Source: a virus
Taxonomy: Duplodnaviria > Heunggongvirae > Uroviricota > Caudoviricetes
Strand: one strand, 5' to 3'
Length of the DNA: 30,612 bases
Virus record (IMG/VR): IMGVR_UViG_2859827302_000008
Every line of letters starts with the position of its first letter. Position 1 is the stretch's first letter. Below are positions 1-30,612 of this stretch, in pieces. The translations under genes were made by a program, and so were the position numbers. A model generated the notes under the pieces. The model had not been told where the DNA came from. It saw nothing but the letters and a program-made list of their open reading frames with translations, and did no database searches.

Positions 1-660
<660 letters not shown>

Positions 661-2823: not shown

Positions 2824-2915
2824 GTAAGCGTACAGCCTGAACCGTCTGGTCAGAATCTGACGAATTAGACAAAGTGGTGTCCACCAAATAAGTAGTGGGA
2901 ACCAAAGTGTCAGAT

Positions 2916-3296
2916 ATGCAGAAAAATGTGAATCCCGGCAGGCGAAAAGGCTGCCCTAATTATCCTCCCGAATTTAAACAGCAGCTCGTTGCTGCCTCCT
3001 GTGAACCCGGGATATCCATCTCAAAACTTGCTCTTGAAAATGGCATTAACGCCAATCTGTTGTTCAAATGGCGACAACAATGGCGCGAGGGAAAGCTGCT
3101 ATTACCTTCTTCAGAGAGCCCCCAGCTACTTCCTGTGACTCTCGATGCAGCTGCCGAACAGCCAGAATCGCTCGCAGAGGATCCGGAAACCCTCAGTATC
3201 AGCTGTGAGGTAACGTTCCGGCACGGGACGCTCCGCTTCAATGGCAATGTCAGCGAAAAGCTCCTGACTCTGCTGATACAGGAACTGAAGCGATGA
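2916..3296 (+). CDS. tnpA: IS66-family accessory protein TnpA
   Basis: First ORF inside the IS; start taken as ATG 2916 (ORF track uses GTG 2895). Stop overlaps the tnpB start (ATGA). Confidence 0.65.
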   Translation: MQKNVNPGRRKGCPNYPPEFKQQLVAASCEPGISISKLALENGINANLLFKWRQQWREGKLLLPSSESPQLLPVTLDAAAEQPESLAEDPETLSISCEVTFRHGTLRFNGNVSEKLLTLLIQELKR

Positions 3297-3640
3297 TCCC
3301 GTTACCTTCCGGGACCAAAATTTGGCTGGTTGCCGGTATCACCGATATGAGAAATGGCTTCAACGGCCTGGCGGCAAAGGTGCAGACGACGCTGAAAGAC
3401 GATCCGATGTCAGGTCACGTTTTTATCTTCCGTGGGCGTTATGGCAGTCAGGTAAAGCTCCTCTGGTCTACCGGCGATGGACTGTGTCTGCTGACCAAAC
3501 GGCTGGAGCGCGGCCGCTTCGCCTGGCCGTCAGCCCGGGATGGCAAAGTGTTCCTCACACCGGCACAGCTGGCGATGCTCCTTGAAGGTATCGACTGGCG
3601 GCAGCCTAAAAGACTGCTTACGTCCCTGACTATGTTGTAA
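3293..3640 (+). CDS. tnpB: IS66-family Orf2 (TnpB)
   Basis: 115-aa ORF in the conserved middle position of IS66 elements, translationally coupled to tnpA. Confidence 0.7.
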   Translation: MIPLPSGTKIWLVAGITDMRNGFNGLAAKVQTTLKDDPMSGHVFIFRGRYGSQVKLLWSTGDGLCLLTKRLERGRFAWPSARDGKVFLTPAQLAMLLEGIDWRQPKRLLTSLTML

Positions 3641-3688
3641 GCCTCTTTATCCTGGTCGACGCTGAATGAGCCTGGTAATATACCCGGT

Positions 3689-5227
3689 ATGAGCAGCTCA
3701 CTTCCTGACGATATCAATGCACTGAAACGTCTCCTTGCCGAACAGGAGGCGCTGAACCGTGCCCTGCTGGAAAAGCTGAACGAGCGTGAACGCGAAATAG
3801 ACCATCTGCAGGCACAGCTGGATAAGCTGCGCCGGATGAACTTCGGCAGCCGCTCCGAAAAAGTCTCCCGTCGTATCGCACAGATGGAAGCTGACCTGAA
3901 GGCACTTCAGAAAGAAAGTGATACCCTTACCGGTCGGGTTGACGACCCGGCCGTGCAGCGCCCGCTGCGTCAAACCCGCACCCGCAAACCGTTCCCCGAA
4001 TCACTCCCCCGCGATGAAAAACGGCTGCTGCCGGCAGCGTCATGCTGCCCGGAATGTGGAGGCTCACTGAGCTATCCGGGTGAGGATGCCGCCGAACAGC
4101 TGGAGTTGATGCGCAGCGTCTTCCGGGTTATCCGGACTGTACGTGAAAAGCATGCCTGTACTCAGTGCGATGCCATCGTGCAGGCCCCCGCGCCTTCACG
4201 GCCCATCGAGCGGGGTATCGCAGGACCGGGGCTGCTGGCCCGCGTGCTGATCTCAAAGTATGCAGAGCACACCCCGCTGTACCGCCAGTCTGAAATGTAC
4301 GGCCGCCAGGGCGTGGAGCTGAGTCGTTCACTGCTGTCGGGCTGGGTGGATGCATGCTGCCGGCTACTGTCACCGCTGGAAGAAGCGCTTCAGGATTATG
4401 TGCTGACTGACGGTAAGCTCCATGCTGATGACACGCCTGTCCCGGTGCTGTTGCCAGGCAATAAGAAAACGAAGACCGGGCGGTTATGGACCTACGTTCG
4501 TGACGACCGTAACGCCGGGTCAACGCTGGCGCCGGCGGTGTGGTTCGCTTACAGCCCGGACAGAAAAGGCATCCATCCGCAGACCCATCTTGCGGGGTTC
4601 AGTGGTGTACTGCAGGCGGATGCATACGCCGGGTTCAACGAGCTGTACCGGGATGGCCGGATAACGGAAGCCGCCTGTTGGGCTCACGCCCGCCGTAAAA
4701 TCCACGATGTGCACGTTCGCACCCCGTCAGCCCTGACGGAGGAAGCGCTGAAACGGATCGGCGAACTGTACGCCATCGAGGCAGAGATAAGGGGAATGAC
4801 GGCGGAGCAGCGCCTTGCCGAACGTCAGTTGAAAACGAAACCGCTGCTGAAATCCCTGGAAAGCTGGCTGCGTGAAAAGATGAAAACCCTGTCGCGACAC
4901 TCAGAACTGGCGAAAGCGTTCGCATACGCCCTGAACCAGTGGCCGGCGCTGACGTACTATGCAGATGATGGCTGGGCTGAGGCGGACAATAACATCGCTG
5001 AAAATGCGTTGCGGATGGTCAGTCTGGGCCGCAAAAACTACCTGTTCTTCGGTTCGGATCATGGAGGAGAGCGGGGAGCGCTGCTGTACAGCCTGATCGG
5101 GACGTGCAAACTGAACGGAGTGGAGCCAGAAAGCTACCTCCGCTATGTCCTTGACGTCATAGCCGACTGGCCGATAAACCGGGTCGGCGAACTGCTCCCC
5201 TGGCGCGTAGCACTGCCGACTGAATAA
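3689..5227 (+). CDS. tnpC: IS66-family transposase TnpC
   Basis: 512-aa ORF with N-terminal coiled-coil, CxxC…CxxC zinc-finger-like motif (CCPECGG…CTQCD) and DDE-type core, ending just inside the right inverted repeat. Confidence 0.85.
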
Positions 5228-5264
5228 CACATCCCCGTCAATACGGTTCTTGCTGCACGCTTAC

Positions 5265-5272
5265 CATTGACG
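5265..5272. repeat. Target-site duplication CATTGACG, right copy
   Basis: Exact copy of 2816..2823 immediately after the IS right end. Confidence 0.8.
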
Positions 5273-7039: not shown

Positions 7040-8689
7040 ATGTTAGTCAAGAAAAATAAAAATTATAGTTTATATTTTTTAATTACAAATAATCAACAGA
7101 TATCTGATTCTGGTAATTATATAAAAATAGTCCCATCAAGAAGCGATTGGAATGATTTTGGATATTTGAGTAGAGTCGAAATATCTATTTTTAATAAAAA
7201 AGAGTGTAAGGATATAATTTCACTGAATGGTTATATTGGTTTTTTGAATTCAGAGGAGGAACGAAATGGAAAAGCAGAACTGATAAGGCGAGTGAAAAAA
7301 AAGGAAGAATCTAATTTAAAGGATGAGGGGTTTAATGATTATTTTGTCATGCTTCAGGATATGAATAATTATCGAAGACTAGTAAGATTTTTTGGGGTGA
7401 ATGAATCCAAATATATATTAAATTTCATTAATGATGTTGTTTCTAAGAAAAGTGACGCTAGTGCAGAGAATTTGAGGAAAAAAGCAATCTCTTCTGATAT
7501 CTTTAATAAATCTTTCATTAGAGAGTCTGAGTCGTATTTTACTTTCAAAAATGCAGGAACAGTTCTTTCCGGTATTCAATATGAGGAGTTGGGTAATTTA
7601 TCACAGCACATCAAGATTAGCTATTCGAATAAAGTTAATGAAGAAGATGTATCTTATGTTTTTAATTTTGATCACGAGCATGATTTACCAAAAAGAATTT
7701 CCATAATTATAGGCGAGAATGGTGTAGGAAAAAGCCAAACGCTTAGAGAAATCGCATTGGCTGCGATTAAAGGAAAGGATAATTTGGTGGCTGTAGTTGA
7801 TTCTAACGGTGTGAGCATTGAAGAACGAATTCAAATTAGTAGGCTCATTGCTTTTTCTCCAACAAATGAAAGTAAGTGTTCATTTCCAACCGATAAAAGA
7901 ATAAAATCATTGATATGGTACAAAAGATTGACTTTAAATCGTGAATCAAAATCCAAATTAAACTTGAATGATTTAATAGTGCAACTAGCGAGGAGTAACG
8001 ACGCTATCGGCTATAATCAAAGGTGGAATATATTTGTTGATGCACTGAGTGTTCTAAATAGTAACAACGATTTAGTAATCAAATGTGGCGGTGAAAATTC
8101 ACCATTTGTTAAATTAAATGAGCTTAATTCTCGAGGCGAAGAATCTAGACTATCATTATATTCTGAAATTATTCTCTCTGGCGAGCCTTTGAGGCTTATT
8201 GAAAATAAATGTTACCCTTTGAGTAGTGGGGAAATATCGTTTATTAAGTTTTGTGTACAAGTCTGTTTGTATATTGAGAATGGGACTCTTCTATTAATAG
8301 ATGAGCCAGAAACACATCTCCATCCTTCATTTATTAATAAATTTATGGCATTGCTTGATAATTTATTAGAAAAGACAGGCTCTTCAGCTATCATAGCAAC
8401 GCATTCGGTTTATCTTGTTCGGGAGGTTTTTAAGGAGCAAGTGACAATACTCAGAAGACGAGATGATGGGGTAATTGTTAGCGAAAAACCGAGATTGAGT
8501 ACTTTTGGGGCGAATATAGGAAATATCTCATATTTTGTTTTCGGTGAGAGTGAACCAACTCAAATTTTAAATAAAGTAAAAAACAATATAATTGCAAAGA
8601 ATATGTCTTGGGATGATGTTGAATCTAAATATAGCGAGGACTTATCACTTAATGTATTAACTGCGTTGAGAAATGAAATGGGCAATTGA
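7040..8689 (+). CDS. ABC-type (AAA_15/AAA_21-like) ATPase with unassigned ~220-aa N-terminal domain; candidate defence ATPase (PtuA-like)
   Basis: 549-aa ORF with GAGAGGG ribosome-binding site. Walker A GENGVGKS (aa ~225-232), signature-like LSSGE (~395), Walker B LLLIDEPE (~417-424), H-loop ATHS (~453). Gene is strongly AT-rich. Confidence 0.85.
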   Translation: MLVKKNKNYSLYFLITNNQQISDSGNYIKIVPSRSDWNDFGYLSRVEISIFNKKECKDIISLNGYIGFLNSEEERNGKAELIRRVKKKEESNLKDEGFNDYFVMLQDMNNYRRLVRFFGVNESKYILNFINDVVSKKSDASAENLRKKAISSDIFNKSFIRESESYFTFKNAGTVLSGIQYEELGNLSQHIKISYSNKVNEEDVSYVFNFDHEHDLPKRISIIIGENGVGKSQTLREIALAAIKGKDNLVAVVDSNGVSIEERIQISRLIAFSPTNESKCSFPTDKRIKSLIWYKRLTLNRESKSKLNLNDLIVQLARSNDAIGYNQRWNIFVDALSVLNSNNDLVIKCGGENSPFVKLNELNSRGEESRLSLYSEIILSGEPLRLIENKCYPLSSGEISFIKFCVQVCLYIENGTLLLIDEPETHLHPSFINKFMALLDNLLEKTGSSAIIATHSVYLVREVFKEQVTILRRRDDGVIVSEKPRLSTFGANIGNISYFVFGESEPTQILNKVKNNIIAKNMSWDDVESKYSEDLSLNVLTALRNEMGN

Positions 8690-9554
8690 AATGAATAAAT
8701 TAAAAAGACCTGTTTTTAAAGATTATTCTGCATTTAAAAAACTATCTGCAAATAAGAGATTAAAACATCATTCTGTTCTGAATGGACAGGATACATTTAT
8801 ACTTAATGCATATAGATCGTACATAAAGAATAAAGGGTATCTTAATGTCAATTCTTGTGGCGTATTGAGTAACAATATTGCTGAAGCTTTGAGATATTAT
8901 TATAACAATCCCGCAAAGTGTTTATCTATAATTGATGATATAAGAGCAGCTAATTCTAACTCTCTATGTCCAATGTGTGGTTCAATGCATAGCGGGACTT
9001 TGGATCATGTTTTACCCAAGGAAAACTATCCAGAATTTTCTTTATTCACTAAGAATTTGGTTCCTGCTTGCAAATGTAATACTTTCAAAAGTACTACTAT
9101 AGCTAATTCTGCAGGCCATCGGATGCTGCATCCATATTTTGATAATATATTAAAACAAAGATTAATATGTGCTAATTTTTCTAAATTAGGGCGAACACCT
9201 ACAATTGATGTAAAAATCATAATTGACCCAATGTCACCAGAATATAACAATGTTAAGTATCATCTTGATAATGTTGTTATCAAGAATAATATTAAGGGGT
9301 ATTTGTCTGAACAATGGGAGTCGTTTTACTTATATCCTGAGCTTGTTATTAGAGGACTGAATAAGAGTCTTTCTACTTATAGCGATGTATATGAGTTGTT
9401 GACTCGCGAGTTGTTGCTGTTGGATGAAAAACATAAAGGTAAAAATAATTGGAATTCGGTTTTTGTAGCTGGGTTAATTCGACCTGATGTGATTAGGTGG
9501 ATACTCTGTGAATTACATTTAGGTAACAGAAGTCCAGACGGTCGTCTCATATGA
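8673..9554 (+). CDS. HNH-family nuclease (His-Me finger with Cys4 zinc site); candidate defence effector (PtuB-like)
   Basis: 293-aa ORF overlapping the ATPase stop by 17 nt (alternative start ATG 8691 directly after the stop). Motif CPMCGS…GTLDHVLPKEN…NLVPACKCN…H matches the CxxC…DH…N…CxCN HNH layout. Confidence 0.8.
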   Translation: MKWAIEMNKLKRPVFKDYSAFKKLSANKRLKHHSVLNGQDTFILNAYRSYIKNKGYLNVNSCGVLSNNIAEALRYYYNNPAKCLSIIDDIRAANSNSLCPMCGSMHSGTLDHVLPKENYPEFSLFTKNLVPACKCNTFKSTTIANSAGHRMLHPYFDNILKQRLICANFSKLGRTPTIDVKIIIDPMSPEYNNVKYHLDNVVIKNNIKGYLSEQWESFYLYPELVIRGLNKSLSTYSDVYELLTRELLLLDEKHKGKNNWNSVFVAGLIRPDVIRWILCELHLGNRSPDGRLI

Positions 9555-9661: not shown

Positions 9662-10696
9662 TTAAGTAGCTAGTTTATAACTATCAAATTTAACAATGTT
9701 CTCACTTACCAATTTATTTATTTCCATCATTCTTTTTTGTAACGGTATTAACTCGTTACGTACAAACACCAGGCTCGCCTTCTCCACATCCCCAAACCCC
9801 CCGACATTATTAGGCATAATCCCCATCATTTGCGGTGGCACACGATGCGCCGCCATCATGTCATCCCGGCTCACGTTCTTGATGTTCAGAAACTCATCCT
9901 TCGCCGCGACTTCTGACAACGGGATGATCTGAAGCCCGTCCTTTTTGCCGTTAGGCGAGTACATAAACAGATTGCGGAAGTTACCTGGTCCTTTGGCGCT
10001 TTTCATCGCATTGCGGAGGTTGTTCACATCCTCCTGGTTTTGCGCGGCATCGGTCATGTACATGATGAAGCCTGCATGACTGCCGTTAATGTAATACTAT
10101 CGGCGGAACAGCGTGGCGGACTCGTTGAGCAGGGCTGACGGAATGGCAGAAAGGTAACCTGGCAGGCCGTAGATCTCTTGGTTGATGTCCGGTTCCATCA
10201 GATGAAAGATGCTTCCTTTCGTGAACTGATACGGCTGCGTGGTCATGCCGTATTGCACAAACCAGTAGGTATCCAGGTCTAATCCGCGTCGGGTGTATTT
10301 TGCCAGAGCAGGCTCAAGAGCGATGACCTCTCCGAACCGGTTTGTGCGTTTCTCCAGGTAAGCGTTACCAAATACCAGATAATCCTGCACAAAACGTGAA
10401 AAAGCCTGCTGGCTGAGCAGCGGGTGAGGGATGTAGGTACTGATCAGAATGTTGCATTTCACCGCAATTGGTGAACTGTGATGCACGGCGGCGCGGAAGG
10501 TGCGCGCCAGTCCGTCAAAACTCACTGGCGGCTCATACCAGCGATCTGTCTGTACGCATTCCACATAGTCCAGTAGTTCACGGCGGTCCAGAACCGGAAC
10601 GGGATCGCCGAAGCTGAATGCTTCGGCTGAAGTCTGGTTTTTATGCTGGGTCTGTTTCGTCGCCGCAGCGCGGTTCTTCTTACTCTTTCCCATCAA
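9662..10696 (-). pseudogene. Q: P2-type portal protein gene Q with one in-frame amber codon (TAG at 10097..10099)
   Basis: Two minus-strand ORFs (10097..10696 and 9662..10063) share one frame and are separated only by the TAG plus 11 sense codons. Combined length (~344 codons) fits a P2-type portal. Confidence 0.85.
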
Positions 10697-15259: not shown

Positions 15260-15706
15260 ATGAAGTTTGTTGCGCCAGAACAGGCACCGGAACAGGCGGA
15301 AATCATTAGAAATACGCCGTTCTGGCCTGATGTGGACCTGTCGGAGTTTCGCAGTGTCATGCGCACTGACGGCACGGTGACGCAGCCGCGTTTAAAGTAG
15401 GTTGCACTGTCGGCAATTTCGGAGGTTAACGCAGAGCTGTATGAGTTTCGCAGACGCCAGCAGATGCTGGGGTATGCGTCGGAACAGCTGGACGGGAAAA
15501 GTGAGCGCATTCAGCACTATTTCAACGCGGTTTACTGCTGGGCTCGCGCCATGCTCAACGAACGTTTCCAGGACTATGACGCCACGGCATCCGGTGCGAA
15601 GCGGGGCGAAGAACTGGCGGAAGCAAGCGGTGATTTGTGGCGTGACGCCCGCTGGGCCATCAGCCGGGTGCAGGACGCGCCGCACTGCACAGTGGAGCTT
15701 ATCTGA
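15260..15706 (+). pseudogene. L: Head completion protein gene L with in-frame amber codon (TAG at 15398..15400)
   Basis: ATG 15260 with AGGAG ribosome-binding site. Translation …NTPFWPDVDLSEFRSVMRTDGTVTQPRLK-stop-VALSAISEVNAELYEF… continues in the same frame to 15706 and resembles P2 gpL on both sides of the stop. Confidence 0.8.
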
Positions 15707-17952: not shown

Positions 17953-18346
17953 ATTGCAGAAGGTGGACGACTGGCTGAGTGCATTATTGGCGAATCTGGA
18001 GCCAGCCGCAAGAAGCCGCATGATGCGCCAGCTGGCGCAGGAACTGCGCCGGACACAGCAGCAGAACATCAGGATGCAGCGCAATCCAGATGGCAGCAGT
18101 TATGAGCCGCGCAGGGTAACAGCACGCAGCAAAAAGGGGCGCATCAAACGTCAGATGTTTACAAAGCTGCGCACCACAAAATACCTGAAAACTGCAGCCA
18201 GCGCCGATTCTGCCAGCGTACAGTTTGAAGGTAGGGTGCAGCGCATTGCCCGTATTCACCATTACGGCTTGAGTGATCGCGTCAGTCGAAAAGGTATTTA
18301 TACCATCTATGCGAAAAGGCAGTTATTAGGTTTTAATGTCCGGTAA
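17945..18346 (+). pseudogene. S: Tail completion protein gene S, 3' end replaced by the IS1 terminus
   Basis: GTG-initiated ORF. The last codons and the stop (TAA 18344..18346) lie at the junction with and inside the IS1 inverted repeat that starts at 18342. Confidence 0.7.
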
Positions 18347-18396
18347 TGCTGCCAACTTACTGATTTAGTGTATGATGGTGATTTTAAGGTGCTTGC

Positions 18397-18672
18397 GTGG
18401 CTTCCATTTCCATCAGATGTCCTTCCTGCTCCGCTATTGAAGGCGTGGTGCGTAACGGCAAAAGCACTGCCGGACATCAGCGCTATCTCTGCTCTCATTG
18501 CCGTAAAACATGGCAATTACAGTTCACTTACACCGCCTCTCAGCCCGGTACGCACCAGAAAATCATTGATATGGCCATGAATGGCGTCGGATGTCGCGCC
18601 AGTGCACGCATTATGGGCGTTGGCCTCAACACGGTTTTACGTCACTTAAAAAACTCAGGCCGCAGTCGGTAA
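18397..18672 (+). CDS. insA: IS1 InsA
   Basis: 91-aa [26 protein letters not shown]… with zinc-finger and HTH regions, characteristic of IS1 InsA. Confidence 0.9.
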
Positions 18673-19094
18673 CCTCGCGCATACAACCGGGCAGTGATGT
18701 GATTGTCTGCGCTGAAATGGACGAACAGTGGGGCTACGTCGGTGCTAAATCACGTCAGCGCTGGCTGTTTTACGCGTATGACAGGATACGGAGGACGGTT
18801 GTGGCGCACGTCTTCGGTGAACGCACTCTGGCCACACTGGAGCGTCTTCTGAGCCTGCTGTCGGCCTTTGAGGTCGTGGTATGGATGACGGATGGCTGGC
18901 CGCTGTATGAATCACGCCTGAAGGGAAAGCTGCACGTTATCAGCAAGCGTTACACTCAGCGCATTGAGCGACATAATCTGAATCTGAGACAACATCTGGC
19001 AAGGCTGGGACGGAAGTCACTGTCGTTCTCAAAATCGGTGGAGCTGCATGACAAGGTCATCGGGCATTATCTGAACATAAAACACTATCAGTAA
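18591..19094 (+). CDS. insB: IS1 InsB reading frame (expressed as InsAB' transposase by -1 frameshift)
   Basis: 167-aa ORF overlapping insA in the -1 frame, ending 15 bp before the right inverted repeat. Confidence 0.85.
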
Positions 19095-19109
19095 GTTGGC
19101 AGCATTACC

Positions 19110-19624
19110 ATGCAGCCCTCACAATATAGTTAAAAGCGACATTTCGTGGGCGTGTTTCATTCGCACCTGCAGGTTTAGTCGTTGCCGCAACAACACCACC
19201 CTCTGTAATAGCCGGGTTGGGAATTGGGTAATTATCGAAGTCAATGGCCGGAGACAGGGGCGTGATTTGTTTTAAAATCGTGGTGCCTGTAAAACTTTCC
19301 AGAGTCTGGTCGTTAGTTCGTGAAGTCCAGATTCCCCAATAGTGGTTATGACTGACAATCGCACCGTCCTGAAGCGTTAATAATCCCCTTCCGTTATCCA
19401 CTCCACGTCCGTCATCCCAGCCACGAATAAACTCACCGCGTAAATCAGGCAATTTATTTGTCGGGTAAGCCTTTGCCAGTTCCGGGTATTCTTCAGCAGA
19501 AAAAGCCGCACCATTGCATTTCAGCCAGCCTGTCGGCGGAGTGGCTGAAGGCCACGGAACAGGCACACCAACAGGTAATGCAGAGCCTTCTCCCAAACCA
19601 ACGTTTAAGAAAATGCAGAGATAA
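19110..19624 (-). pseudogene. Orphan tail-fibre variable C-terminal segment (Sv'-type, inverted orientation), lacking its constant 5' partner
   Basis: Minus-strand translation …PVPWPSATPPTGWLKCNGAAFSAEEYPELAKAYP…ETRPRNVAFNYIVRAAW is typical of invertible-segment tail-fibre tips. The 5' end begins within the gix-like site and the 3' end abuts IS1, which supplies the stop codon. Confidence 0.65.
19599..19624. promoter_or_regulatory. gix/pix-like DNA-invertase crossover site
   Basis: TTCTCCCAAACCAACGTTTAAGAAAA versus recalled gix consensus TTATCCAAAACCTCGGTTTACAGGAA. It lies inside the tail-fibre reading frame, next to the invertase gene. Confidence 0.5.
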
Positions 19625-19668
19625 TGGCTAACTGGCATCATCTCCGGTTTTTATTCAGGGGATTGATC

Positions 19669-20235
19669 ATGCTTATTGGCTATGTACGCGTGTCAACAAA
19701 TGACCAGAACACCGATTTGCAACGTAATGCACTGAACTGCGCGGGATGTGAGCGGATTTTTGAGGATAAAATCAGTGGCACTAAGCCCGACAGACCGGGG
19801 CTTAAAAAACTGCTCAGGACACTATCGGCAGGAGACACGCTGGTTGTCTGGAAGCTGGACAGACTGGGACGCAGTATGCGGCATCTTGTTACGCTGATAG
19901 AAGAGTTGCGCCAGCGTGGTGTGAATTTCCGAAGCCTGACTGACAGTATTGATACCAGTACCCCAATGGGCCGTTTCTTTTTTCACGTCATGGGGGCTCT
20001 GGCTGAAATGGAACGTGAACTGATAGTTGAACGTACCAGAGCAGGGCTGGCTGCAGCTCGTGCCAAAGGCAGAGTAGGTGGACTCCGTCCTAAGTTGACC
20101 ACCGAACAGTGGGCACAGATTGGACGTTTACTCGAGGCCGGAGAATCAAGACAGCGTATTGCACTGATTTTTGATGTGGGCGTTTCTACCATTTATAGAA
20201 AATTTCCGGCGAATGAGAGCAATGAATCGCCCTGA
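19669..20235 (+). CDS. pin: Serine-recombinase DNA invertase (Pin/Gin/Hin/Cin family)
   Basis: Translation MLIGYVRVSTNDQNTDLQRNAL…VVWKLDRLGRSM…GALAEMERELI… carries the catalytic Ser in YVRVST and a C-terminal HTH. Start taken as ATG 19669. Confidence 0.9.
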   Translation: MLIGYVRVSTNDQNTDLQRNALNCAGCERIFEDKISGTKPDRPGLKKLLRTLSAGDTLVVWKLDRLGRSMRHLVTLIEELRQRGVNFRSLTDSIDTSTPMGRFFFHVMGALAEMERELIVERTRAGLAAARAKGRVGGLRPKLTTEQWAQIGRLLEAGESRQRIALIFDVGVSTIYRKFPANESNESP

Positions 20236-20283
20236 GTCAGTATTATTTTGATTTTTCCTGTAAGCGGACAAATACCGTCATTT

Positions 20284-20301
20284 TGTGTGAATAACGACAC
20301 A
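20284..20301. promoter_or_regulatory. Ogr/Delta-type late-promoter dyad TGT-N12-ACA upstream of FI
   Basis: TGTgtgaataacgacACA about 75 bp upstream of the FI start. Confidence 0.4.
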
Positions 20302-20377
20302 ACTGCGCTTAGCTGTTTGTCAGGCACAATCACTTCAACATAGGGCGAAGCCTAATCCAATCAGGAGGTTCGCCACT

Positions 20378-21550
20378 ATGGCTCAGGATTACCACCACGG
20401 GGTGCGCGTTGTTGAAGTCAACGAAGGCACCCGATCCATTACCACGGTGAGCACCGCCATCGTGGGTATGGTCTGCACGGGCGATGATGCCGATGCAAAA
20501 ATGTTTCCTCTTAATAAACCTGTGCTGATCACTGATGTGCTGACCGCCAGCGGTAAAGCGGGTGAGTCTGGCACGCTGGCCCGTTCGCTGGATGCCATCG
20601 CTGACCAGGCAAAACCCGTGACCGTTGTTGTGCGTGTGCCGCAGGGTGAAACGGAAGAAGAAACCACAACCAATATCATTGGCGCAGTGACCGCCGAGGG
20701 TAAAAAAACAGGTATGAAAGCCCTGTTATCTGCCCAGTCACAGCTCGGCGTTAAACCGCGCATTCTCGGCGTGCCAGGTCACGACACGAAGGCGGTAGCT
20801 ACTGAGTTGCTGAGCGTGGCGCAAAGCCTGCGTGGATTTGCTTACCTGTCAGCGTATGGTTGCAAGACGGTGCAGGAAGCAATCACTTACCGTGAAAACT
20901 TCAGTCAGCGTGAAGGAATGCTGATCTGGCCCGACTTTACTGGCTGGGACACGGTGCTGAATGCCGAAGCAACGGCTTATGCCACCGCCCGTGCGCTCGG
21001 TCTGCGCGCTAAAATTGATGAGCAGACCGGATGGCACAAAAGCCTGTCCAACGTGGGCGTGAACGGTGTCACCGGAATTTCTGCTGATGTGTTCTGGGAT
21101 CTGCAGAACCCGGCAACCGATGCAGGTCTGCTTAACCAGAACGATATCACCACGCTTATCCGCAAAGACGGTTTCCGCTTCTGGGGTTCCCGCTGTCTGA
21201 GCGATGATCCGCTCTTTGCCTTCGAAAACTACACCCGCACGGCGCAGGTGCTGATGGACACGATGGCAGAAGCGCACATGTGGGCGGTGGACAAACCGCT
21301 GAACCCGTCGCTGGCCCGCGACATTATCGAAGGTATCCGCGCCAAAATGCGTAGCCTGGTCAGTCAGGGCTATCTCATTGGTGGTGATTGCTGGCTGGAC
21401 GAGTCGGTGAACGATAAAGACACGCTGAAAGCCGGGAAACTCACCATCGATTACGACTACACGCCAGTGCCGCCACTTGAAAACCTGATGCTGCGTCAGC
21501 GCATCACCGATCAGTACCTGGTGAATTTCTCCAGCCAGGTCAGCGCGTAA
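20378..21550 (+). CDS. FI: Tail sheath protein (gpFI-like)
   Basis: 390-aa ORF with AGGAGG ribosome-binding site; size and position match P2 FI. Confidence 0.9.
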
Positions 21551-21559
21551 GGGGACAAC

Positions 21560-22075
21560 ATGGCTTTACCACGCAAATTAAAACACCTGAACCTGTTTAA
21601 CGACGGGAACAACTGGCAGGGGATCGTTGAGTCGCTGACGCTGCCGAAATTCACCCGCAAATATGAGAAGTATCGCGGCGGCGGTATGCCCGGAGCGGTG
21701 GATGTGGATCTGGGACTGGATGACAGTGCACTGGATACAGAATTTTCCATTGGTGGTACTGAACTGCTGCTGTTTAAGCAGATGGGCAAAGCCACGGTGG
21801 ATGGCATCCAGCTGCGCTTTACCGGCTCTATTCAGCGTGATGATACCGGGGAAGTGCAGGCCGTGGAGCTTGTGGTGCGTGGACGTCACAAAGAAGTAGA
21901 TTCCGGCGAGTGGAAGACGGGCGAAAGCAACACTACCAAAGTGACCAGTACCAACAGCTACGCGAAGCTGACCATCAATGGTGAGGTGCTCTATGAAGTG
22001 GACCTGATCAACATGGTGGAAATTGTGGACGGTGTGGACCTGATGGAAGCGCACCGCAACGCCCTCGGCCTCTGA
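21560..22075 (+). CDS. FII: Tail tube protein (gpFII-like)
   Basis: 171-aa ORF directly after FI; matches P2 FII. Confidence 0.9.
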   Translation: MALPRKLKHLNLFNDGNNWQGIVESLTLPKFTRKYEKYRGGGMPGAVDVDLGLDDSALDTEFSIGGTELLLFKQMGKATVDGIQLRFTGSIQRDDTGEVQAVELVVRGRHKEVDSGEWKTGESNTTKVTSTNSYAKLTINGEVLYEVDLINMVEIVDGVDLMEAHRNALGL

Positions 22076-22129
22076 TGTATCTGAACGGCGCGGAATGCCG
22101 CGCCAGAACCTAATTTACAGGACAACAAA

Positions 22130-22432
22130 ATGAGCGATAAGCAGACTGAAAAGACCATTCAACTGGATACTCCCATCATGCGCGGTAAAACAGAAATTAC
22201 CGAAATTGTGTTGCGTAAACCGCAGTCCGGTGCGCTGCGCGGCACACGCCTGCAGGCCATTATGGATATGGATGTGAACGCGATGATGACCGTGATCCCC
22301 CGCATCTCCAGTCCGGCACTGACTGCACAGGAAATTGCAGAGATGGACCCGGCAGATCTCACTGCCATGTCGGTTGAGGTTGTCACTTTTTTGTTGAAGA
22401 AGTCGGTGCTTGCCGGTTTACCGACAGCCTGA
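22130..22432 (+). CDS. E: Tail assembly chaperone E
   Basis: 100-aa ORF between the tube and tape-measure genes, containing the slippery heptamer near its 3' end. Confidence 0.75.
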   Translation: MSDKQTEKTIQLDTPIMRGKTEITEIVLRKPQSGALRGTRLQAIMDMDVNAMMTVIPRISSPALTAQEIAEMDPADLTAMSVEVVTFLLKKSVLAGLPTA

Positions 22433-22566
22433 CGGTTGACGATCTGGTGGCTGATATCGCCACCATCTTTCACTGGCCGCCATCCGTTACTGACGTTATG
22501 CCGCTGACCGAAGTGCTGGAATGGCGGGATAAAGCGATTCAGAGAAGCGGGGCCAGCCATGAGTGA
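22130..22566 (+). CDS. E': E+E' product made by programmed -1 frameshift at T_TTT_TTG (22387..22393)
   Basis: Slippery heptamer is in X_XXY_YYZ phase with the E frame. The -1 frame stays open to TGA 22564..22566 and encodes …SLTVDDLVADIATIFHWPPS…, overlapping the T start. Confidence 0.6.
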
Positions 22567-25500
22567 CAATAACCTGCGTCTGCAGGTGATTCTTAATGCG
22601 GTTGACAAACTCACCCGCCCATTTCGATCCGCGCAGGCCAGTTCAAGAGAACTGGCTGCTGCTGTCAAAAAATCCCGCGATGCAATAAAGCAGCTTGATC
22701 AGGCCGGGAGCAGTCTGGACAGCTTCCGAAAGCTGCAGGCAGAAAATCAGAAATTAGGCGACAGGCTGAACTATGCCCGCCAGCGTGCAAATTTGCTCAG
22801 TCAGGAACTGGGAGCGATGGGGCCGCCTTCGCAACGTCAGGTTGTTGCTCTGGGCCGTCAACGGCTGGCTGTTCAGCGCCTGGAAGAACGCCAGAAAAAG
22901 CTGCAGCAGCAGACGGCGCTTGTGCGTGCAGAACTTTATCGTGCTGGTATTTCAGCTAATGATGGCGCCAGTGCGACGGCCCGCATTACCCGTGAAACGA
23001 TGCGTTATAACAGGCAGCTTTCTGAGCAGGAAGCGAGGTTACGACGTGTCGGGGAGCAACAGCGAAAAATGCACGCCGCCCGGGGGGCTTACGCCAGGCG
23101 TCTTGAGGTAAGGGATCGTATTGCAGGTGCCGGAGCCACCACCACGGCTGCAGGGCTGGCAATGGGCGCACCAGTGATGGCGGCAGTAAAAAGCTATACC
23201 AGCATGGAAGATGCCATGAAAGGTGTGGCAAAGCAGGTCAATGGTCTGCGTGACGATAATGGCAACCGCACTGCGCGTTTTTACGAAATGCAGGGTGCCA
23301 TCAAGGCTGCCAGCGAACAGTTGCCGATGGAAAACGGTGCTGTGGACTTCGCCGCACTGGTTGAAGGTGGTGCGCGCATGAACGTCGCAAACCCTGACGA
23401 CAGCTGGGAAGACCAGAAACGTGACCTGCTGGCCTTCGCCAGCACGGCGGCAAAGGCGGCAACAGCCTTTGAACTGCCAGCGGATGAACTGTCAGAAAGT
23501 CTGGGGAAAATCGCCCAGCTCTACAAAATCCCTACCCGCAATATTGAGCAGCTCGGTGATGCGCTGAACTATCTGGATGATAACGCCATGTCGAAAGGGG
23601 CGGACATCATTGATGTCATGCAACGCCTGGGCGGTGTGGCTGACCGTCTGGATTATCGTAAAGCGGCGGCGCTGGGTTCCACCTTCCTGACACTCGGCGC
23701 TGCGCCTGAGGTTGCAGCCAGTGCAGCAAACGCGATGGTGCGTGAATTGTCCATTGCCACCATGCAAAGCAAGAGTTTCTTTGAAGGGATGAATCTGCTG
23801 AAACTCAATCCAGAAGTGATTGAAAAGCAGATGACGAAGGATGCGATGGGAACTATCCAGCGGGTGCTGGAGAAGGTGAATGCGCTGCCACAGGATAAGC
23901 GCCTGTCTGCCATGACCATGTTGTTTGGTAAAGAGTTTGGCGATGACGCAGCGAAACTGGCAAACAACCTGCCGGAACTTCAGCGCCAGTTAAAACTGAC
24001 TGCGGGCAATGATGCGCTCGGTTCCATGCAGAAAGAATCCGACATCAACAAGGATTCACTTTCTGCTCAGTGGTTGCTGGTCAAAACCGGAGCACAGAAC
24101 ACCTTCAGCAGCCTGGGGGAAACGCTGCGCCAGCCGCTGATGGATATTCTGTACACGGTGAAAAGCGTCACGGGGGCGTTGCGTCGCTGGGTGGAAGCTA
24201 ACCCGGAACTGACGGGCACTCTGATGAAAGTAGCCGCTGTGGTAGCTGCCGTTACCGTGGGCCTCGGCACCTTAGCGGTGGCGCTGGCTGCAGTGCTGGG
24301 GCCGCTGGCAGTCATCCGTCTGGGATTCTCTGTGCTGGGTATCAAAACGTTACCTTCCGTTACGGCAGCAGTAACCCGAACCAGCAACGCGTTGTCCTGG
24401 CTGGCTGGCGCACCACTGGCACTGCTGCGACGCGGGCTTGCTTCATCGGGCAACGCTGCAGGTTTACTTACTGCGCCGTTGTCGTCTTTGCGCCGCACGG
24501 CATCACTGACGGGAAATGTCCTGAAAACTGTAGCAGGTGCGCCGGTTGCACTTTTGCGGTCTGGATTATCCGGTTTACGTGCGGTTGCTGTGATGTTTAT
24601 GAATCCACTGGCGGTACTACGCGGCGGACTGGCTGCCACAGGCACGGTGCTGCGTATGCTCGCATCCGGTCCACTGGCGATGCTGCGCGTTGCCCTGTAT
24701 GCCGTCTCTGGTCTGTTAGGTGCTCTGCTCAGTCTGATAGGTCTTGTGGTTACTGCACTGGCGGGTGTGGCGCTGGTTGTCTGGAAATACTGGCAGCCCA
24801 TCACCACATTTCTCGGTGGCGTGGTGGAAGGATTCAAAGCGGCGGCAGGTCCTGTCAGTGCCGCGTTCGAACCGCTTAAGCCTGTGTTCCAGTGGATTGG
24901 CGACAAAGTACAGGCGCTGTGGGGCTGGTTTACTGATCTGCTGACGCCCGTTAAGTCGACCTCTGCCGAACTGCAGAGTGCAGCGGCAATGGGGCGACGA
25001 TTCGGGGAGGCTCTGGCGGAAGGGCTGAATATGGTCATGCATCCGCTGGACTCCCTGAAATCCGGCGTTTCCTGGTTGCTGGAGAAACTTGGCATTGTCA
25101 GTAAAGAGGCCGCAAAGGCGAAACTGCCGGAAAGCGTGACGCGTCAGCAACCTGCGACGGTGAATGCAGACGGTAAAGTGATGATGCCATCGGGTGGTTT
25201 TCCGTCATGGGGATATGGCTTTGCGGGGATGTATGACAGCGGCGGGTATATCCCGCGCGGGCAGTTTGGCATCGTCGGTGAAAACGGGCCGGAAATTGTT
25301 AACGGCCCGGCAAATGTGACCAGCCGGAGAAATACAGCTGCACTGGCTGCCGTTGTTGCCGGAATGATGGGTGTTGCTGCTACGCCAGCAGAGCTTCCAC
25401 CGTTGCACCCTTTGGCACTTCCCGCGAAAGGCGGTGAAGCGATGGTGAGTCGTGCAGCCACTGTGCCGCCCGTTCAACGGATTGAGGCACCGATGCAGAT

Positions 25501-25636
25501 CATCATTCAAACGCAGCCAGGACAAAGTGCGCAGGATATTGCGCGGGAGGTGGCCCGCCAGCTTGATGAACGTGAACGCAGGCTGAAGGCAAAAGCCAGG
25601 AGTAACTACAGCGATCAGGGGGGATACGACGCATGA
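22559..25636 (+). CDS. T: Tail tape-measure protein (gpT-like)
   Basis: 1025-aa ORF; coiled-coil N-terminal half, Ala/Leu/Gly-rich repetitive hydrophobic middle, located after E/E'. Confidence 0.9.
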   Translation: MSDNNLRLQVILNAVDKLTRPFRSAQASSRELAAAVKKSRDAIKQLDQAGSSLDSFRKLQAENQKLGDRLNYARQRANLLSQELGAMGPPSQRQVVALGRQRLAVQRLEERQKKLQQQTALVRAELYRAGISANDGASATARITRETMRYNRQLSEQEARLRRVGEQQRKMHAARGAYARRLEVRDRIAGAGATTTAAGLAMGAPVMAAVKSYTSMEDAMKGVAKQVNGLRDDNGNRTARFYEMQGAIKAASEQLPMENGAVDFAALVEGGARMNVANPDDSWEDQKRDLLAFASTAAKAATAFELPADELSESLGKIAQLYKIPTRNIEQLGDALNYLDDNAMSKGADIIDVMQRLGGVADRLDYRKAAALGSTFLTLGAAPEVAASAANAMVRELSIATMQSKSFFEGMNLLKLNPEVIEKQMTKDAMGTIQRVLEKVNALPQDKRLSAMTMLFGKEFGDDAAKLANNLPELQRQLKLTAGNDALGSMQKESDINKDSLSAQWLLVKTGAQNTFSSLGETLRQPLMDILYTVKSVTGALRRWVEANPELTGTLMKVAAVVAAVTVGLGTLAVALAAVLGPLAVIRLGFSVLGIKTLPSVTAAVTRTSNALSWLAGAPLALLRRGLASSGNAAGLLTAPLSSLRRTASLTGNVLKTVAGAPVALLRSGLSGLRAVAVMFMNPLAVLRGGLAATGTVLRMLASGPLAMLRVALYAVSGLLGALLSLIGLVVTALAGVALVVWKYWQPITTFLGGVVEGFKAAAGPVSAAFEPLKPVFQWIGDKVQALWGWFTDLLTPVKSTSAELQSAAAMGRRFGEALAEGLNMVMHPLDSLKSGVSWLLEKLGIVSKEAAKAKLPESVTRQQPATVNADGKVMMPSGGFPSWGYGFAGMYDSGGYIPRGQFGIVGENGPEIVNGPANVTSRRNTAALAAVVAGMMGVAATPAELPPLHPLALPAKGGEAMVSRAATVPPVQRIEAPMQIIIQTQPGQSAQDIAREVARQLDERERRLKAKARSNYSDQGGYDA

Positions 25637-26118
25637 TGATGGTGCTGGGATTGTACGTGTTTATGCTGCGCACCGTGCCGTATCAGGAGCTGCAGTATCA
25701 ACGCAGCTGGCGACATGCGGCAAACAGCCGGGTAAACCGACGCCCGTCAACGCAGTTTCTGGGACCGGACAACGACATGCTGACGCTTTCTGGTGTTCTT
25801 ATGCCGGAGGTAACGGGCGGCAGGCTGTCGTTGCTGGCTCTGGAGCAGATGGCAGAACAGGGAAAAGCATGGCCCCTGATTGAAGGCAGCGGCACGATTT
25901 ACGGCATGTATGTGATTGAGGGACTGAATCAGACTAAAACGGAGTTTTTCCGCGACGGTATGCCGCGCCGGATTGAGTTCACCCTGTCGCTAAAACGCGT
26001 GGATGAATCCCTGTCCGATATGTTCGGTGATCTCAGTGCGCAACTGAATAATCTGCAGGGAACGGCAACATCTGCCTTAAGCGATATCAGTAAAACGGTG
26101 GGAGGGCTGCTGTCGTGA
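25633..26118 (+). CDS. U: Tail protein U
   Basis: 161-aa ORF coupled to T (ATGA overlap); size and position match P2 gpU. Confidence 0.8.
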   Translation: MMMVLGLYVFMLRTVPYQELQYQRSWRHAANSRVNRRPSTQFLGPDNDMLTLSGVLMPEVTGGRLSLLALEQMAEQGKAWPLIEGSGTIYGMYVIEGLNQTKTEFFRDGMPRRIEFTLSLKRVDESLSDMFGDLSAQLNNLQGTATSALSDISKTVGGLLS

Positions 26119-27215
26119 ATTTCAGCTCTGAACTGCTTAACAAAGGCAACAAAACTCCGGCATTCAGCATCAGTATTGAAGGCAGGGATATCACCACTGT
26201 GCTGGACAACCGCCTGATGGGGCTGACGCTGACGGATAACCGGGGCTTTGAGGCGGACTAGCTTGATCTGGAGCTGGACGACGCCGATGGAAAAATCGTG
26301 CTGCCGCGCCGTGGGGCTGTCATTACGCTGGCGCTGGGCTGGAAGGGACAGCCGCTTTTCCCGAAAGGGGCATTCACGGTGGACGAGATTGAACACACTG
26401 GCGCACCGGATCGCCTGACTATCCGGGCGCGAAGTGCTGATTTTCGTGAAACGCTGAATACCCGCCGTGAAAAGTCGTGGCACAAGACCACCGTTGGGGA
26501 AGTGGTGAAGGAAATAGCTGCGCGGCACAAACTGAAGATGGCATTGGGTGAAGACTTGTCGGATAAACTCGTGGAGCATATAGACCAGACTAATGAGAGT
26601 GACGGCAGTTTTTTGATGCGGCTGGCGCGCCAGTACGGTGCTATTGCGTCGGTGAAAAATGGCAATCTGTTATTCATCCGGCAGGGGCAGGGTAAAAGCG
26701 CCAGCGGTAAACCACTACCGGTGATCACTATCACACGCAAGGACGGCGACAGTCACCGCTTTACCCTGGCAGATCGCGGAGCTTACACGGGCGTCATTGC
26801 CAGCTGGTTGCATACCCGCGAACCCGCGAAGAAAGAAAGCACCACGGTGAAGCGTAAGCGCAGGACTAAGAAGCAGAAGAAAGAGCCGGAAGCGAAGCAG
26901 GGCGATTACCTGGTGGGTACGGATGAAAACGTGCTGGTACTTAATCGCACTTATGCCAACCGGAGCAACGCCGAACGGGCAGCGAAAATGCAGTGGGAAC
27001 GCCTGCAACGCGGCGTTGCATCATTCTCGCTACAACTGGCGGAAGGGCGGGCAGATCTCTACACAGAAATGCCTGTGAAGGTCAGTGGCTTTAAACAGCC
27101 GATAGATGATGTGGAATGGACCATTACGACTCTGACGCATACTGTCAGCCCGGATAACGGTTTTACGACCAGTCTGGAGCTTGAAGTGAGGATTGATGAT
27201 TTCGAAATGGAATGA
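26115..27215 (+). pseudogene. D: Tail protein gene D with in-frame amber codon (TAG at 26259..26261)
   Basis: GTG 26115 opens VNFSSELLNKGNKTPAFSISIEGRDITTVLDNRLMGLTLTDNRGFEAD, then TAG, then the same frame continues LDLELDDADG… through the 305-aa ORF to 27215. Confidence 0.8.
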
Positions 27216-27305
27216 TTCTTCGCAATGGAGAACTTTTAAGTTTGCAAAATGGAATAATGCGGTATCATTATTGTGAATTTAGCAAAAATGGGGAGAACTC
27301 GAAAA

Positions 27306-27524
27306 ATGATGATTTGCCCACTGTGTGGAAGTGCCGCCCATACTCGCAGCAGTTTTCAGGTATCTTCATTGACCAAAGAGCGTTACAACCAGTGCCAGAA
27401 CATTAACTGCAGCCATACTTTTGTTACCCATGAAACTTTTGTTCGTTCGATTGCAACGCCAAAAGAGTCAAATCCGGTTCAGCCGCATCCAATGAAATCA
27501 GGACAGGTGGCGCTCTCTCTTTGA
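27306..27524 (+). CDS. ogr: Ogr-type zinc-finger late-gene activator
   Basis: Translation MMICPLCGSAAHTRSSFQVSSLTKERYNQCQNINCSHTFVTHE… has the Cys4 pattern CxxC…CxxxxC and the size of P2 Ogr. The ORF track start at 27273 is in the same frame. Confidence 0.85.
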   Translation: MMICPLCGSAAHTRSSFQVSSLTKERYNQCQNINCSHTFVTHETFVRSIATPKESNPVQPHPMKSGQVALSL

Positions 27525-27604
27525 CGCTGCCGCCATTTTGTCGCCATCGTTAAAAAACAGTGCTTCTAACATCATGATTTTAAAAGGCATAAATTTCAGA
27601 CAAC

Positions 27605-27647
27605 AAAAAACCCATCAACCTTGAACCGAAATGGCGGGGTTGATGGG
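27605..27647 (-). terminator. Putative rho-independent terminator downstream of ybjL (minus strand)
   Basis: Inverted repeat CCCATCAACC…GGTTGATGGG (17-nt loop) with A6 on the plus strand, giving a U-tract on the minus-strand transcript. Confidence 0.45.
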
Positions 27648-27759
27648 CTCCACAAAATGGGGACATCAAAGAAAAGCAGTGGCACTAATTAAGACTGATG
27701 CCCTGCGGAAAAGTTCTGCGGTTGTGCAAAAAAATTTCATTTTCAGGGCAACTTCAGTT

Positions 27760-29445
27760 TTATCCTAATCCTGGCCATACCATGACGATGATTGTCCCTG
27801 CCAGCGTCAGCAGGACGTTGGCGATTGCGTAGGTGCCCGCATAGCCCAGCGCAGGGATGTTACTGCGAGCTGTATCACTGATGATCTCCATTGCCGGCGC
27901 GCAGGTGCGTGCGCCCATCATTGCGCCGAACAACAGTGCGCGGTTCATTCGCAATACATAAGCACCGAACAAGAAACAGATAACCACGGGCACAAGACTG
28001 ACAATTAATCCGGCAATCAACATCTGACCGCCAATCGCGGCCAGGCCGTTATTAATACCGCTACCGGCGCTCAGACCAACGCCTGCCATAAACACCATCA
28101 AGCCGAACTCTTTCACCATGCTTAATGCACCTTGCGGAATGTAACCGAAGGTCGGGTGGTTAGCACGCATAAAGCCCAGCATAATTCCGGCGAATAACAA
28201 CCCGGCAGCGTTCCCCATGCCGAAACTGAATGTGCTGAACTGGAAGGTGATCATCCCGATCATCAGCCCAATAACAAAGAAGGCGCAAAATGCCAGCAGG
28301 TCAGTGACCTGGCTGTGAATCGAGATAAAGCCGATGCGATCGGCAATGGTTTTTACGCGACGGGCATCACCGCTGACTTGTAAAACGTCACCTTTGTTAA
28401 GCACGACGTTGTCATCTATCGGCATCTCAATCTGGCTACGAATGACGCGGTTAAGGAAGCAACCGTGATCGGTCAACTTCAGTTGTGCGAGACGTTTACC
28501 TACAGCGTTATGGTTTTTAACGACCACTTCTTCAGTGACGATACGCATGTCGAGAAGGTCACGATCGAAAACTTCTTTACCGTTACGGAAGCTGGGATCG
28601 AGTCGGGCATGGGCGTCGGGATAGCCTACCAACGCTATTTCATCGCCCATTTGTAGCACGGCATCACCGTCTGGATTTGCCAGAATCCCGTTACGTCGAA
28701 TACGTTCAATGTAGCAGCCGGTTTGTCGATAAATACCCAGTTCACGCAGATTTTTGCCGTCGGTCCAGGCCACCAGCTCCGGGCCGACGCGATAGGCGCG
28801 GATCACCGGTAAATAAACCTTACGGTTGGCATCAGTGTCCAGGCCACGTTCGCGGGCGATTTGCTGGGCGCTGGTCTGTAAGTCCTGATGCTGCAATTTC
28901 GGCAAGTAACGCGCACCAACAATCAAACTCACCAGACCGATTAAATAGGTTAAGGCATACCCGAGGCTCAGATTATCCAGTGCCAGTGAGAGCTGCCTGC
29001 TTTCCATGCCGGAATGACGCAGTGTATCGCCAGCACCGACCAGAACCGGTGTCGACGTCATAGAGCCTGCTAACATACCGGCCGTCAGGCCAATATCCCA
29101 GCCAAACAGCTTACCTAACCCTAAGGCGATCACCAGCGCACTGCCAACCATCACCAGTGCTAACATTAGGTAATTTTTCCCATCGCGAAAAAAAATGGAA
29201 AAAAAGTTCGGTCCGGCTTCGACCCCGACGCAGAAAATAAACAGCATAAAGCCAAGATTAAGCGCATCGGTGTTAATGCTGAAATGTTGTTGGCCTAATA
29301 ACAGCGATACGACTAAAACGCCAATGGAATTACCCAGTTGGATCGAACCAAGTCGTAACTTTCCGAGACATAGCCCAAGCGCGAGGACCACAAATAATAA
29401 CAGAATGTAATTCCCATTTAACAATTCGGCGACGTTTATATTCAC
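27760..29445 (-). CDS. ybjL: Putative transport protein YbjL
   Basis: 561-aa ORF: two multi-helix membrane domains flanking cytoplasmic TrkA-C-like regions; translation recognised as E. coli YbjL. Confidence 0.9.
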
Positions 29446-29714
29446 GGAGGCTAACTTCTTGTTTACTAGTAAGCTGTTGAAAGAAATGGTAATTTACGAT
29501 AATGTTTTTTACCAGAATTCAGGGCGCAGATTCATTCAGCGCACCTAAACGATAGTAAAGTAACAATGTATTTTACTAGTGTAATCACATTAGGTATCAA
29601 CGGCTATATGAATTGCGTTGGCCTATATTAGCATGGAATGCGAAGCGGCTTTATCTTACTGAACGCCACACTGGCGAAAAATGTGTTCGATAGACGCAGT
29701 GTCAGGAGGAACGA

Positions 29715-30092
29715 GTGAAACATAAACAACGTTGGGCGGGGGCAATCTGCTGTTTTGTCCTCTTCATTGTGGTGTGCCTTTTTCTGGCGACGTACATGAA
29801 AGGCGCTTTTCGGGCTGCCGGGCATCCTGAAATCGGCTTGCTGTTTTTCATTCTTCCTGGAGCAGTTGCCAGTTTCTTTTCACAGCGTAGAGAAGTCCTG
29901 AAACCTCTATTTGGCGCAATGCTGGCGGCACCCTGTTCAATGCTCATTATGCGGCTGTTTTTTTCACCGACGCGCTCATTCTGGCAAGAGCTGGCATGGT
30001 TACTAAGCGCGGTGTTCTGGTGTGCGCTGGGGGCACTGTGTTTCTTATTTATCAGTAGTTTGTTTAAACCACAGCACAGAAAAAATCAGTAA
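29715..30092 (+). CDS. ybjM: Inner membrane protein YbjM
   Basis: 125-aa hydrophobic ORF, GTG start with AGGAGG ribosome-binding site, in the ybjL-ybjM-grxA arrangement known from E. coli K-12. Confidence 0.8.
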   Translation: MKHKQRWAGAICCFVLFIVVCLFLATYMKGAFRAAGHPEIGLLFFILPGAVASFFSQRREVLKPLFGAMLAAPCSMLIMRLFFSPTRSFWQELAWLLSAVFWCALGALCFLFISSLFKPQHRKNQ

Positions 30093-30093
30093 A

Positions 30094-30110
30094 GCCCTCA
30101 ACGCGAGGGC
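30094..30110. terminator. Weak hairpin between convergent ybjM and grxA, possible bidirectional terminator
   Basis: GCCCTC-aacgc-GAGGGC followed by TT on plus and TTT on minus. Confidence 0.3.
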
Positions 30111-30121
30111 TTGTCAGACGA

Positions 30122-30303
30122 TCAGGCGTCCAGATTTTCTTTCACCCATGCAGCAAAATCGGTATAGCCGCCGATATGTTGCTGATCGACAAAAATCTGC
30201 GGCACGGTTTCTACGGGTTTACCTGCCTTTTGTGGTAGATCTTCTTTAGTGATCCCTTCCGCACGAATATCTACATACTGATACTGAAAATCATCGCGTT
30301 CAT
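30122..30303 (-). pseudogene. grxA: Glutaredoxin 1 gene grxA, 3' fragment (codons ~27 to 85) interrupted by IS1
   Basis: Minus-strand translation ERDDFQYQYVDIRAEGITKEDLPQKAGKPVETVPQIFVDQQHIGGYTDFAAWVKENLDA-stop; the frame runs straight into the IS1 terminus at 30304. This fragment lacks the CPYC active site. Confidence 0.8.
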
Positions 30304-30612
30304 GGTAATGACTCCAACTTACTGATAGTGTTTTATGTTCAGATAATGCCCGATGACCTTGTCATGCAGCTCCACCGATTTTGAGAACGACAGTGACTTC
30401 CGTCCCAGCCTTGCCAGATGTTGTCTCAGATTCAGATTATGTCGCTCAATGCGCTGAGTGTAACGCTTGCTGATAACGTGCAGCTTTCCCTTCAGGCGTG
30501 ATTCATACAGAGGCCAGCCATCCGTCATCCATACCACGACCTCAAAGGCCGACAGCAGGCTCAGAAGACGCTCCAGTGTGGCCAGAGTGCGTTCACCGAA
30601 GACGTGCGCCAC
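30304..30612 (-). mobile_element. IS1, partial (continues beyond window), inverted relative to the first copy
   Basis: Terminus GGTAATGACTCCAACTTACTGAT at 30304 followed by the insB reading frame on the minus strand. Confidence 0.9.
30319..30612 (-). CDS. insB: IS1 InsB, 3' portion (partial at window edge)
   Basis: 97-aa translation identical to the C-terminal part of InsB from the IS1 at 18591..19094. Confidence 0.85.

Follow-up and report, generated by a model that had tools for sequence, protein, structure and literature searches.

The in-frame amber codon (TAG) found at codon 49 of gene D, a gene for a baseplate hub protein of the P2 gpD type, is very probably a recent C>T nonsense mutation in an already wrecked P2-like prophage, i.e. 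a case of ordinary pseudogene decay. It was identified in a window of 30,612 nt, the term window being used here for the whole stretch of DNA that was analysed. The features that define the lesion are as follows (coordinates refer to the window):

26115..27215, plus strand: gene D, encoding a baseplate hub of the P2 gpD type, now a pseudogene (PF05954, ortholog alignment)
26259..26261, plus strand: amber codon TAG, gene D codon 49, the product of a C>T transition at 26259 in CAG (Gln)
26115..26261, plus strand: the 48-codon N-terminal piece that a stop at the amber would leave (ORF listing)
26298..27215, plus strand: the 305-codon residual ORF, starting at the first in-frame GTG 3' of the amber (ORF listing)

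Gene D begins with a GTG at 26115, which overlaps the TGA stop codon of gene U, and ends with a TGA at 27213-27215 (366 codons in total). Read-out of positions 26250-26270 gives GAG GCG GAC TAG CTT GAT CTG. For comparison we used the closest intact orthologue, that of Escherichia coli UPEC-245U (WP_001011770.1), which aligns with gene D without gaps over 1101 nt and differs from it at four positions:

26252: A>G, synonymous
26259: C>T, CAG>TAG, the only one of the four that breaks the frame
27112: C>T, A333V
27143: C>T, synonymous

Both the position of the amber and its codon number, as given in the original prediction, were confirmed by the ORF frame and by the UPEC-245U alignment. The same alignment bore out the further claim that the frame is otherwise intact to 27215: the TAG is the sole internal stop and no indel is present. 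With its full-length reading frame broken at codon 49 of 366, gene D cannot be counted among functional gpD genes. The 305-codon residual ORF lacks the conserved N-terminal 61 residues of gpD, and its product is reported by gene callers as a separate protein. The 48-aa fragment is annotated at NCBI, under several separate accessions, as a hypothetical protein of Shigella dysenteriae.

The TAG is a true, lineage-restricted lesion that is reproduced in independent data. Across the 6147 bases compared, TAG included, the window shows 100% identity to CP026828.1 (GCA_002950015.1), a genome of 4.64 Mb labelled Shigella dysenteriae. This genome clusters with S. boydii genomes (PMC10501659). A literature search for CP026828.1 yielded data-availability lists and the remark on its S. 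boydii grouping, but no mention of the gene D locus. The TAG is also present in the Logan assemblies of runs SRR30464516 (a contig of 11,252 bases) and SRR5005509, in which one other base differs from the window. Since the TAG recurs in independently assembled read sets of the same Shigella lineage, the amber can be regarded as real. A sense codon in the reads had been named as the observation that would speak against it; for this lineage the codon is TAG in at least two independently assembled runs and in the deposited genome.

As regards its spread, the TAG is carried by at least two named runs among the matches listed, while eight and ten further similar places were counted by similarity. 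The exact 305-aa gene D product was found on 9 contigs. The exact 63-mer spanning the TAG occurs in none of 5426 complete E. coli genomes, where even the best of 680 matching records has 2 mismatches. The exact TAG-bearing 36-mer has no match in the GTDB species-representative genomes, among which Shigella probably stands as another E. coli genome, so that this absence is uninformative.

Seven further contigs match the 48-aa fragment and were considered as amber carriers, but they were rejected, as they come from unrelated P2-like prophages and end at codon 48/49. Their base at 26252 is A, their mismatches in the upstream part number about 90 to 1900, and those that extend to the next base have C there. 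One contig of this kind, ending at codon 48/49 and belonging to another P2-like prophage, is common to at least 20 samples. The contig ends at this point of gene D probably reflect the contig selection of the look-up or a common divergence point of co-resident P2-like prophages.

Baseplate hub proteins of the Phage_GPD family are related to T4 gp27 and to the N-terminal part of VgrG. The Phage_GPD profile (PF05954), whose cut-off is 30.1 bits, scores 93.8 bits with the residual 305-aa ORF and 94.3 bits with the intact orthologue. The gene order is also that of a gpD gene, as gene D closes a P2-type late tail operon (FI-FII-E-T-U-D) and is followed by ogr. In a MAFFT alignment, Gln occupies the amber column in the proteins of E. 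coli, Klebsiella phi8.4, Salmonella SopE-phi, Yersinia 42.18, P2 and the Ralstonia peduovirus, and Thr in that of Burkholderia HM387. The Gln that had been given for P2 gpD at this position thus stands, but the surrounding string given for it, EADQLDLELDD, is that of close relatives; P2 itself has EADQLDIELND.

Gene D resembles P2 gpD in its place in the late tail operon (T-U-D-ogr) and in the N-terminal RGFEADQLD motif, which is kept. Unlike P2 gpD, it is broken by the TAG at codon 49 and is a pseudogene, not a working member of the family. It is also nearer to the Klebsiella ST512-KPC3phi13.2-like phages and to SopE-phi than to P2. The nearest phage relatives at the DNA level are Klebsiella Kapieceevirus prophages of the ST512-KPC3phi13.2-like type (95.5% nt identity), and the intact E. 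coli gpD orthologue shares 87% aa identity with the SopE-phi protein and, by tblastn, about 54% identity over its residues 14-366 with P2 gpD.

Gene D is not the only damaged part of this element. A survey of lesions was performed with the intact UPEC-245U prophage, located between rcdA and ybjL, as the reference, and the following were recorded:

1..659, plus strand: end of an IS3-family element, which truncates dam (first 215 nt absent)
2824..5264, plus strand: IS66-family element interrupting replication gene A and flanked by an 8-bp target duplication, CATTGACG, at 2816-2823 and 5265-5272
10097..10099, minus strand: premature TAG in portal gene Q (K199, AAG>TAG), splitting the portal into ORFs of 199 aa and 133 aa
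12331..12333, minus strand: premature TGA in large terminase gene P (W43, TGG>TGA)
15260..15706, plus strand: head completion gene L, with an 18-nt in-frame deletion relative to UPEC-245U
18342..19109, no strand assigned: IS1 copy that replaces the region from the 3' end of S through most of H

The remnant carries at least six inactivating lesions besides the D amber, and the prophage was already dead. At the IS1 copy, the part of the prophage from the 3' end of S onwards has been replaced: a DUF5677 gene, V, W, J and I of the baseplate, most of tail-fibre gene H and the genes for tail-fibre assembly are gone as well. About 6 kb of baseplate, tail-fibre and invertible-segment sequence has been lost. 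The insertion into gene A is a simple transposition event, as indicated by the clean 8-bp duplication CATTGACG. The IS66-family element itself comprises orfA, a TnpB-like orfB and a gene for a 512-aa transposase, all of them intact.

On the left side, the UPEC-245U prophage is joined to int and rcdA. In the source chromosome, genes for a TetR-family regulator, putA and a sodium/solute symporter lie to the left of the IS3-family element (positions 1-9400 of contig L021), and the integrase/immunity region and the left attachment site are absent beside the remnant. The IS3-family junction at window positions 1-659 points to a chromosomal rearrangement or a deletion that an IS brought about in the source genome.

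A second IS1, at 30304-30612, removes or displaces the first 76 nt of grxA. Together with the copy at 18342-19109 it flanks the tail-operon remnant, ybjL and ybjM, and short-read assemblies of related isolates break at both IS1 copies, yielding contigs of about 11.25 kb. Window positions 19110-20235 represent a remnant of the invertible tail-fibre segment. Within it, a 495-nt piece of the C-terminal part of gene H is inverted with respect to the reference and adjoins the gene for a Cin/Gin-type serine invertase (19669-20235), which is intact and carries one R139L change.

The state of the gene can be accounted for by the following course of events. The P2-like (Peduoviridae) prophage remnant, which lies beside ybjL in a Shigella chromosome, would have lost its baseplate and tail-fibre genes by IS1-mediated deletion. 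With these genes already deleted, gene D would have been freed from selection, and a spontaneous C>T change (Gln49>amber) could then have arisen and spread in one sub-lineage. Shigella and E. coli use the standard genetic code, and on this basis, as well as in view of the context, translation would most likely end after 48 residues, which would leave the remaining part of gene D as a pseudogene. The prophage context suggests that the amber is neutral. Such a sequence of events is nothing new in kind and conforms to an already known type of prophage decay.

The order of two of the events is fixed by a sister isolate. The assembly of run SRR8186594 includes a contig of 11,250 bases whose two ends lie in the IS1 copies that also bound window positions 19080-30329 and which differs from this segment at two bases, 26259 (C, hence CAG) and 29474. 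The sister isolate has the IS1 deletion junction but carries CAG, so the baseplate was lost before the amber arose. This order presupposes that the CAG of SRR8186594 is ancestral and does not result from reversion, which is the parsimonious interpretation. A reconstructed gpD with Gln49 and Val333 is present on two Logan contigs, one of which is the SRR8186594 contig. The truncated 531-aa terminase product was found on 21 contigs, compared with the 9 that carry the truncated D product, a difference consistent with a relatively late origin of the D amber among the lesions of the remnant.

Several genes close to gene D have escaped damage, among them its two neighbours:

25633..26118, plus strand: gene U, tail protein, intact and identical to that of UPEC-245U, its stop overlapping the start of D
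27306..27524, plus strand: ogr, late-gene activator, intact and 100% identical to that of the relative, at the right end of the prophage and adjoining ybjL

Overall, FI, FII, E, T, U and ogr around gene D are intact and near-identical to those of the functional relative. This could be read as residual constraint, and recent inactivation fits equally well. Another gene pair, encoding an AAA ATPase (549 aa) and an HNH endonuclease (287 aa), occupies window positions 7040-9554 (plus strand) in the interval between the portal gene and DinI/gene A. By PADLOC the pair matches candidate defence system PDC-M01 (A: 3e-55; B: 1e-33); its matches to Septu PtuA are weaker. Both genes are intact beside the stop-bearing portal and terminase genes, and the pair is also found in the UPEC-245U prophage.

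Among the alternatives to pseudogene decay, it is highly improbable that gene D is still used, with the amber read through by a supE-type tRNA-Gln suppressor or owing to natural leakiness. The supE/glnV suppressor inserts Gln at amber codons, and suppression of this type would exactly repair CAG>TAG. Moreover, the adjacent tail genes are intact and the amber is followed by C; Poole and colleagues are said to have found in 1995 that a stop codon followed by C is a weak termination context in E. coli. A restored hub would, however, have no baseplate or tail fibre left to join, and the remnant also has an opal codon in the terminase gene, a second amber in the portal gene and a gene A split by IS66. 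Programmed recoding would be expected to show a stop codon conserved across orthologues; the TAG is not conserved, and even the sister isolate has CAG. No tRNA genes were found within the 30,612 nt of the window. Since TAG is rare as a stop codon in enterobacteria, it is uninformative that none of the 29 window genes checked for their natural stop ends in TAG.

In this respect the locus can be compared with laboratory amber mutants of P2 tail genes, with which it has in common that a Gln codon of an essential tail gene has become an amber, a kind of change that supE can repair. Unlike those mutations, the amber described here comes from natural and clinical Shigella read sets, and no suppressor could rescue this prophage, given its deleted genes and the opal codon in its terminase gene.

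Re-initiation at the GTG at 26298 or nearby, producing an N-truncated gpD kept for some host function, is very unlikely as well. The truncation would drop the LTLTDNRGFEADQLD block, which is near-invariant across the family, and the partner proteins have been deleted. It is true that the 305-codon ORF remains, that it scores 93.8 bits with Phage_GPD and that gene callers report it; the change is, however, limited to a sub-lineage with a divergence of 2 SNPs per 11 kb and is too recent to show selection.

We find it scarcely credible that the amber was positively selected on the grounds that a useless hub protein, expressed under the control of Ogr, is costly or toxic. Both ogr and the upstream tail operon are intact, and there is a nominal excess of stops. 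In the phage genes that could be compared codon by codon with those of UPEC-245U, the coding differences comprise 12 synonymous changes, 17 non-synonymous changes and 3 stops, i.e. 3 stops among 32, against the 3-4% (about 3.5%) expected under unselected, neutral mutation. This excess is not significant (p = 0.13). Furthermore, the genes for the sheath, the tube and the 1025-aa tape measure, whose expression would be costlier, are untouched, and the sister isolate persists with CAG.

Very little credence can be given to a further possibility, namely that the tail-operon remnant (sheath, tube, E, tape measure, U and ogr) is expressed for the benefit of the host, with D acting as a leaky switch in which near-cognate or suppressor tRNA-Gln, reading the UAG-C stop at the former Gln codon, would allow a small amount of full-length hub protein to be made. 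If this were true, the TAG/CAG polymorphism of the sister isolates would represent a functional on/off difference and not decay.

Finally, the chance that the TAG is a sequencing or assembly error, with C as the true base at 26259 and gene D intact, is practically negligible: the difference does concern a single base, one that is C in the sister isolate, and no complete E. coli genome among the 5426 has the TAG, but it was recovered in the deposited genome and in the independently assembled SRR30464516 and SRR5005509, the site lies outside any homopolymer, and the 48-aa fragment has several separate NCBI S. dysenteriae accessions.

The interpretation of the D amber as a recent nonsense mutation in a dead prophage agrees with the general fate of such elements. 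Defective (“grounded”) prophages of Shigella and E. coli decay by IS insertion, deletion and point mutation (PMC6379469). The remnant analyzed here shares with them IS1, IS3-family and IS66-family elements, an IS-flanked deletion and three premature stops, and it likewise lacks an adjacent attachment-site/integrase side. The locus is a typical example, from a Shigella genome with many insertion sequences. There is no essential difference between them, except that here a sister isolate fixes the order of two events.

Beyond correct annotation, in which gene D should appear as a pseudogene within a P2-like remnant that is not inducible, the finding carries little weight. Two very close sub-lineages of this Shigella clone can be told apart cleanly by the base, C or T, at 26259, and the locus shows the order in which such a prophage decays, with a large IS-mediated deletion followed by point nonsense mutations.
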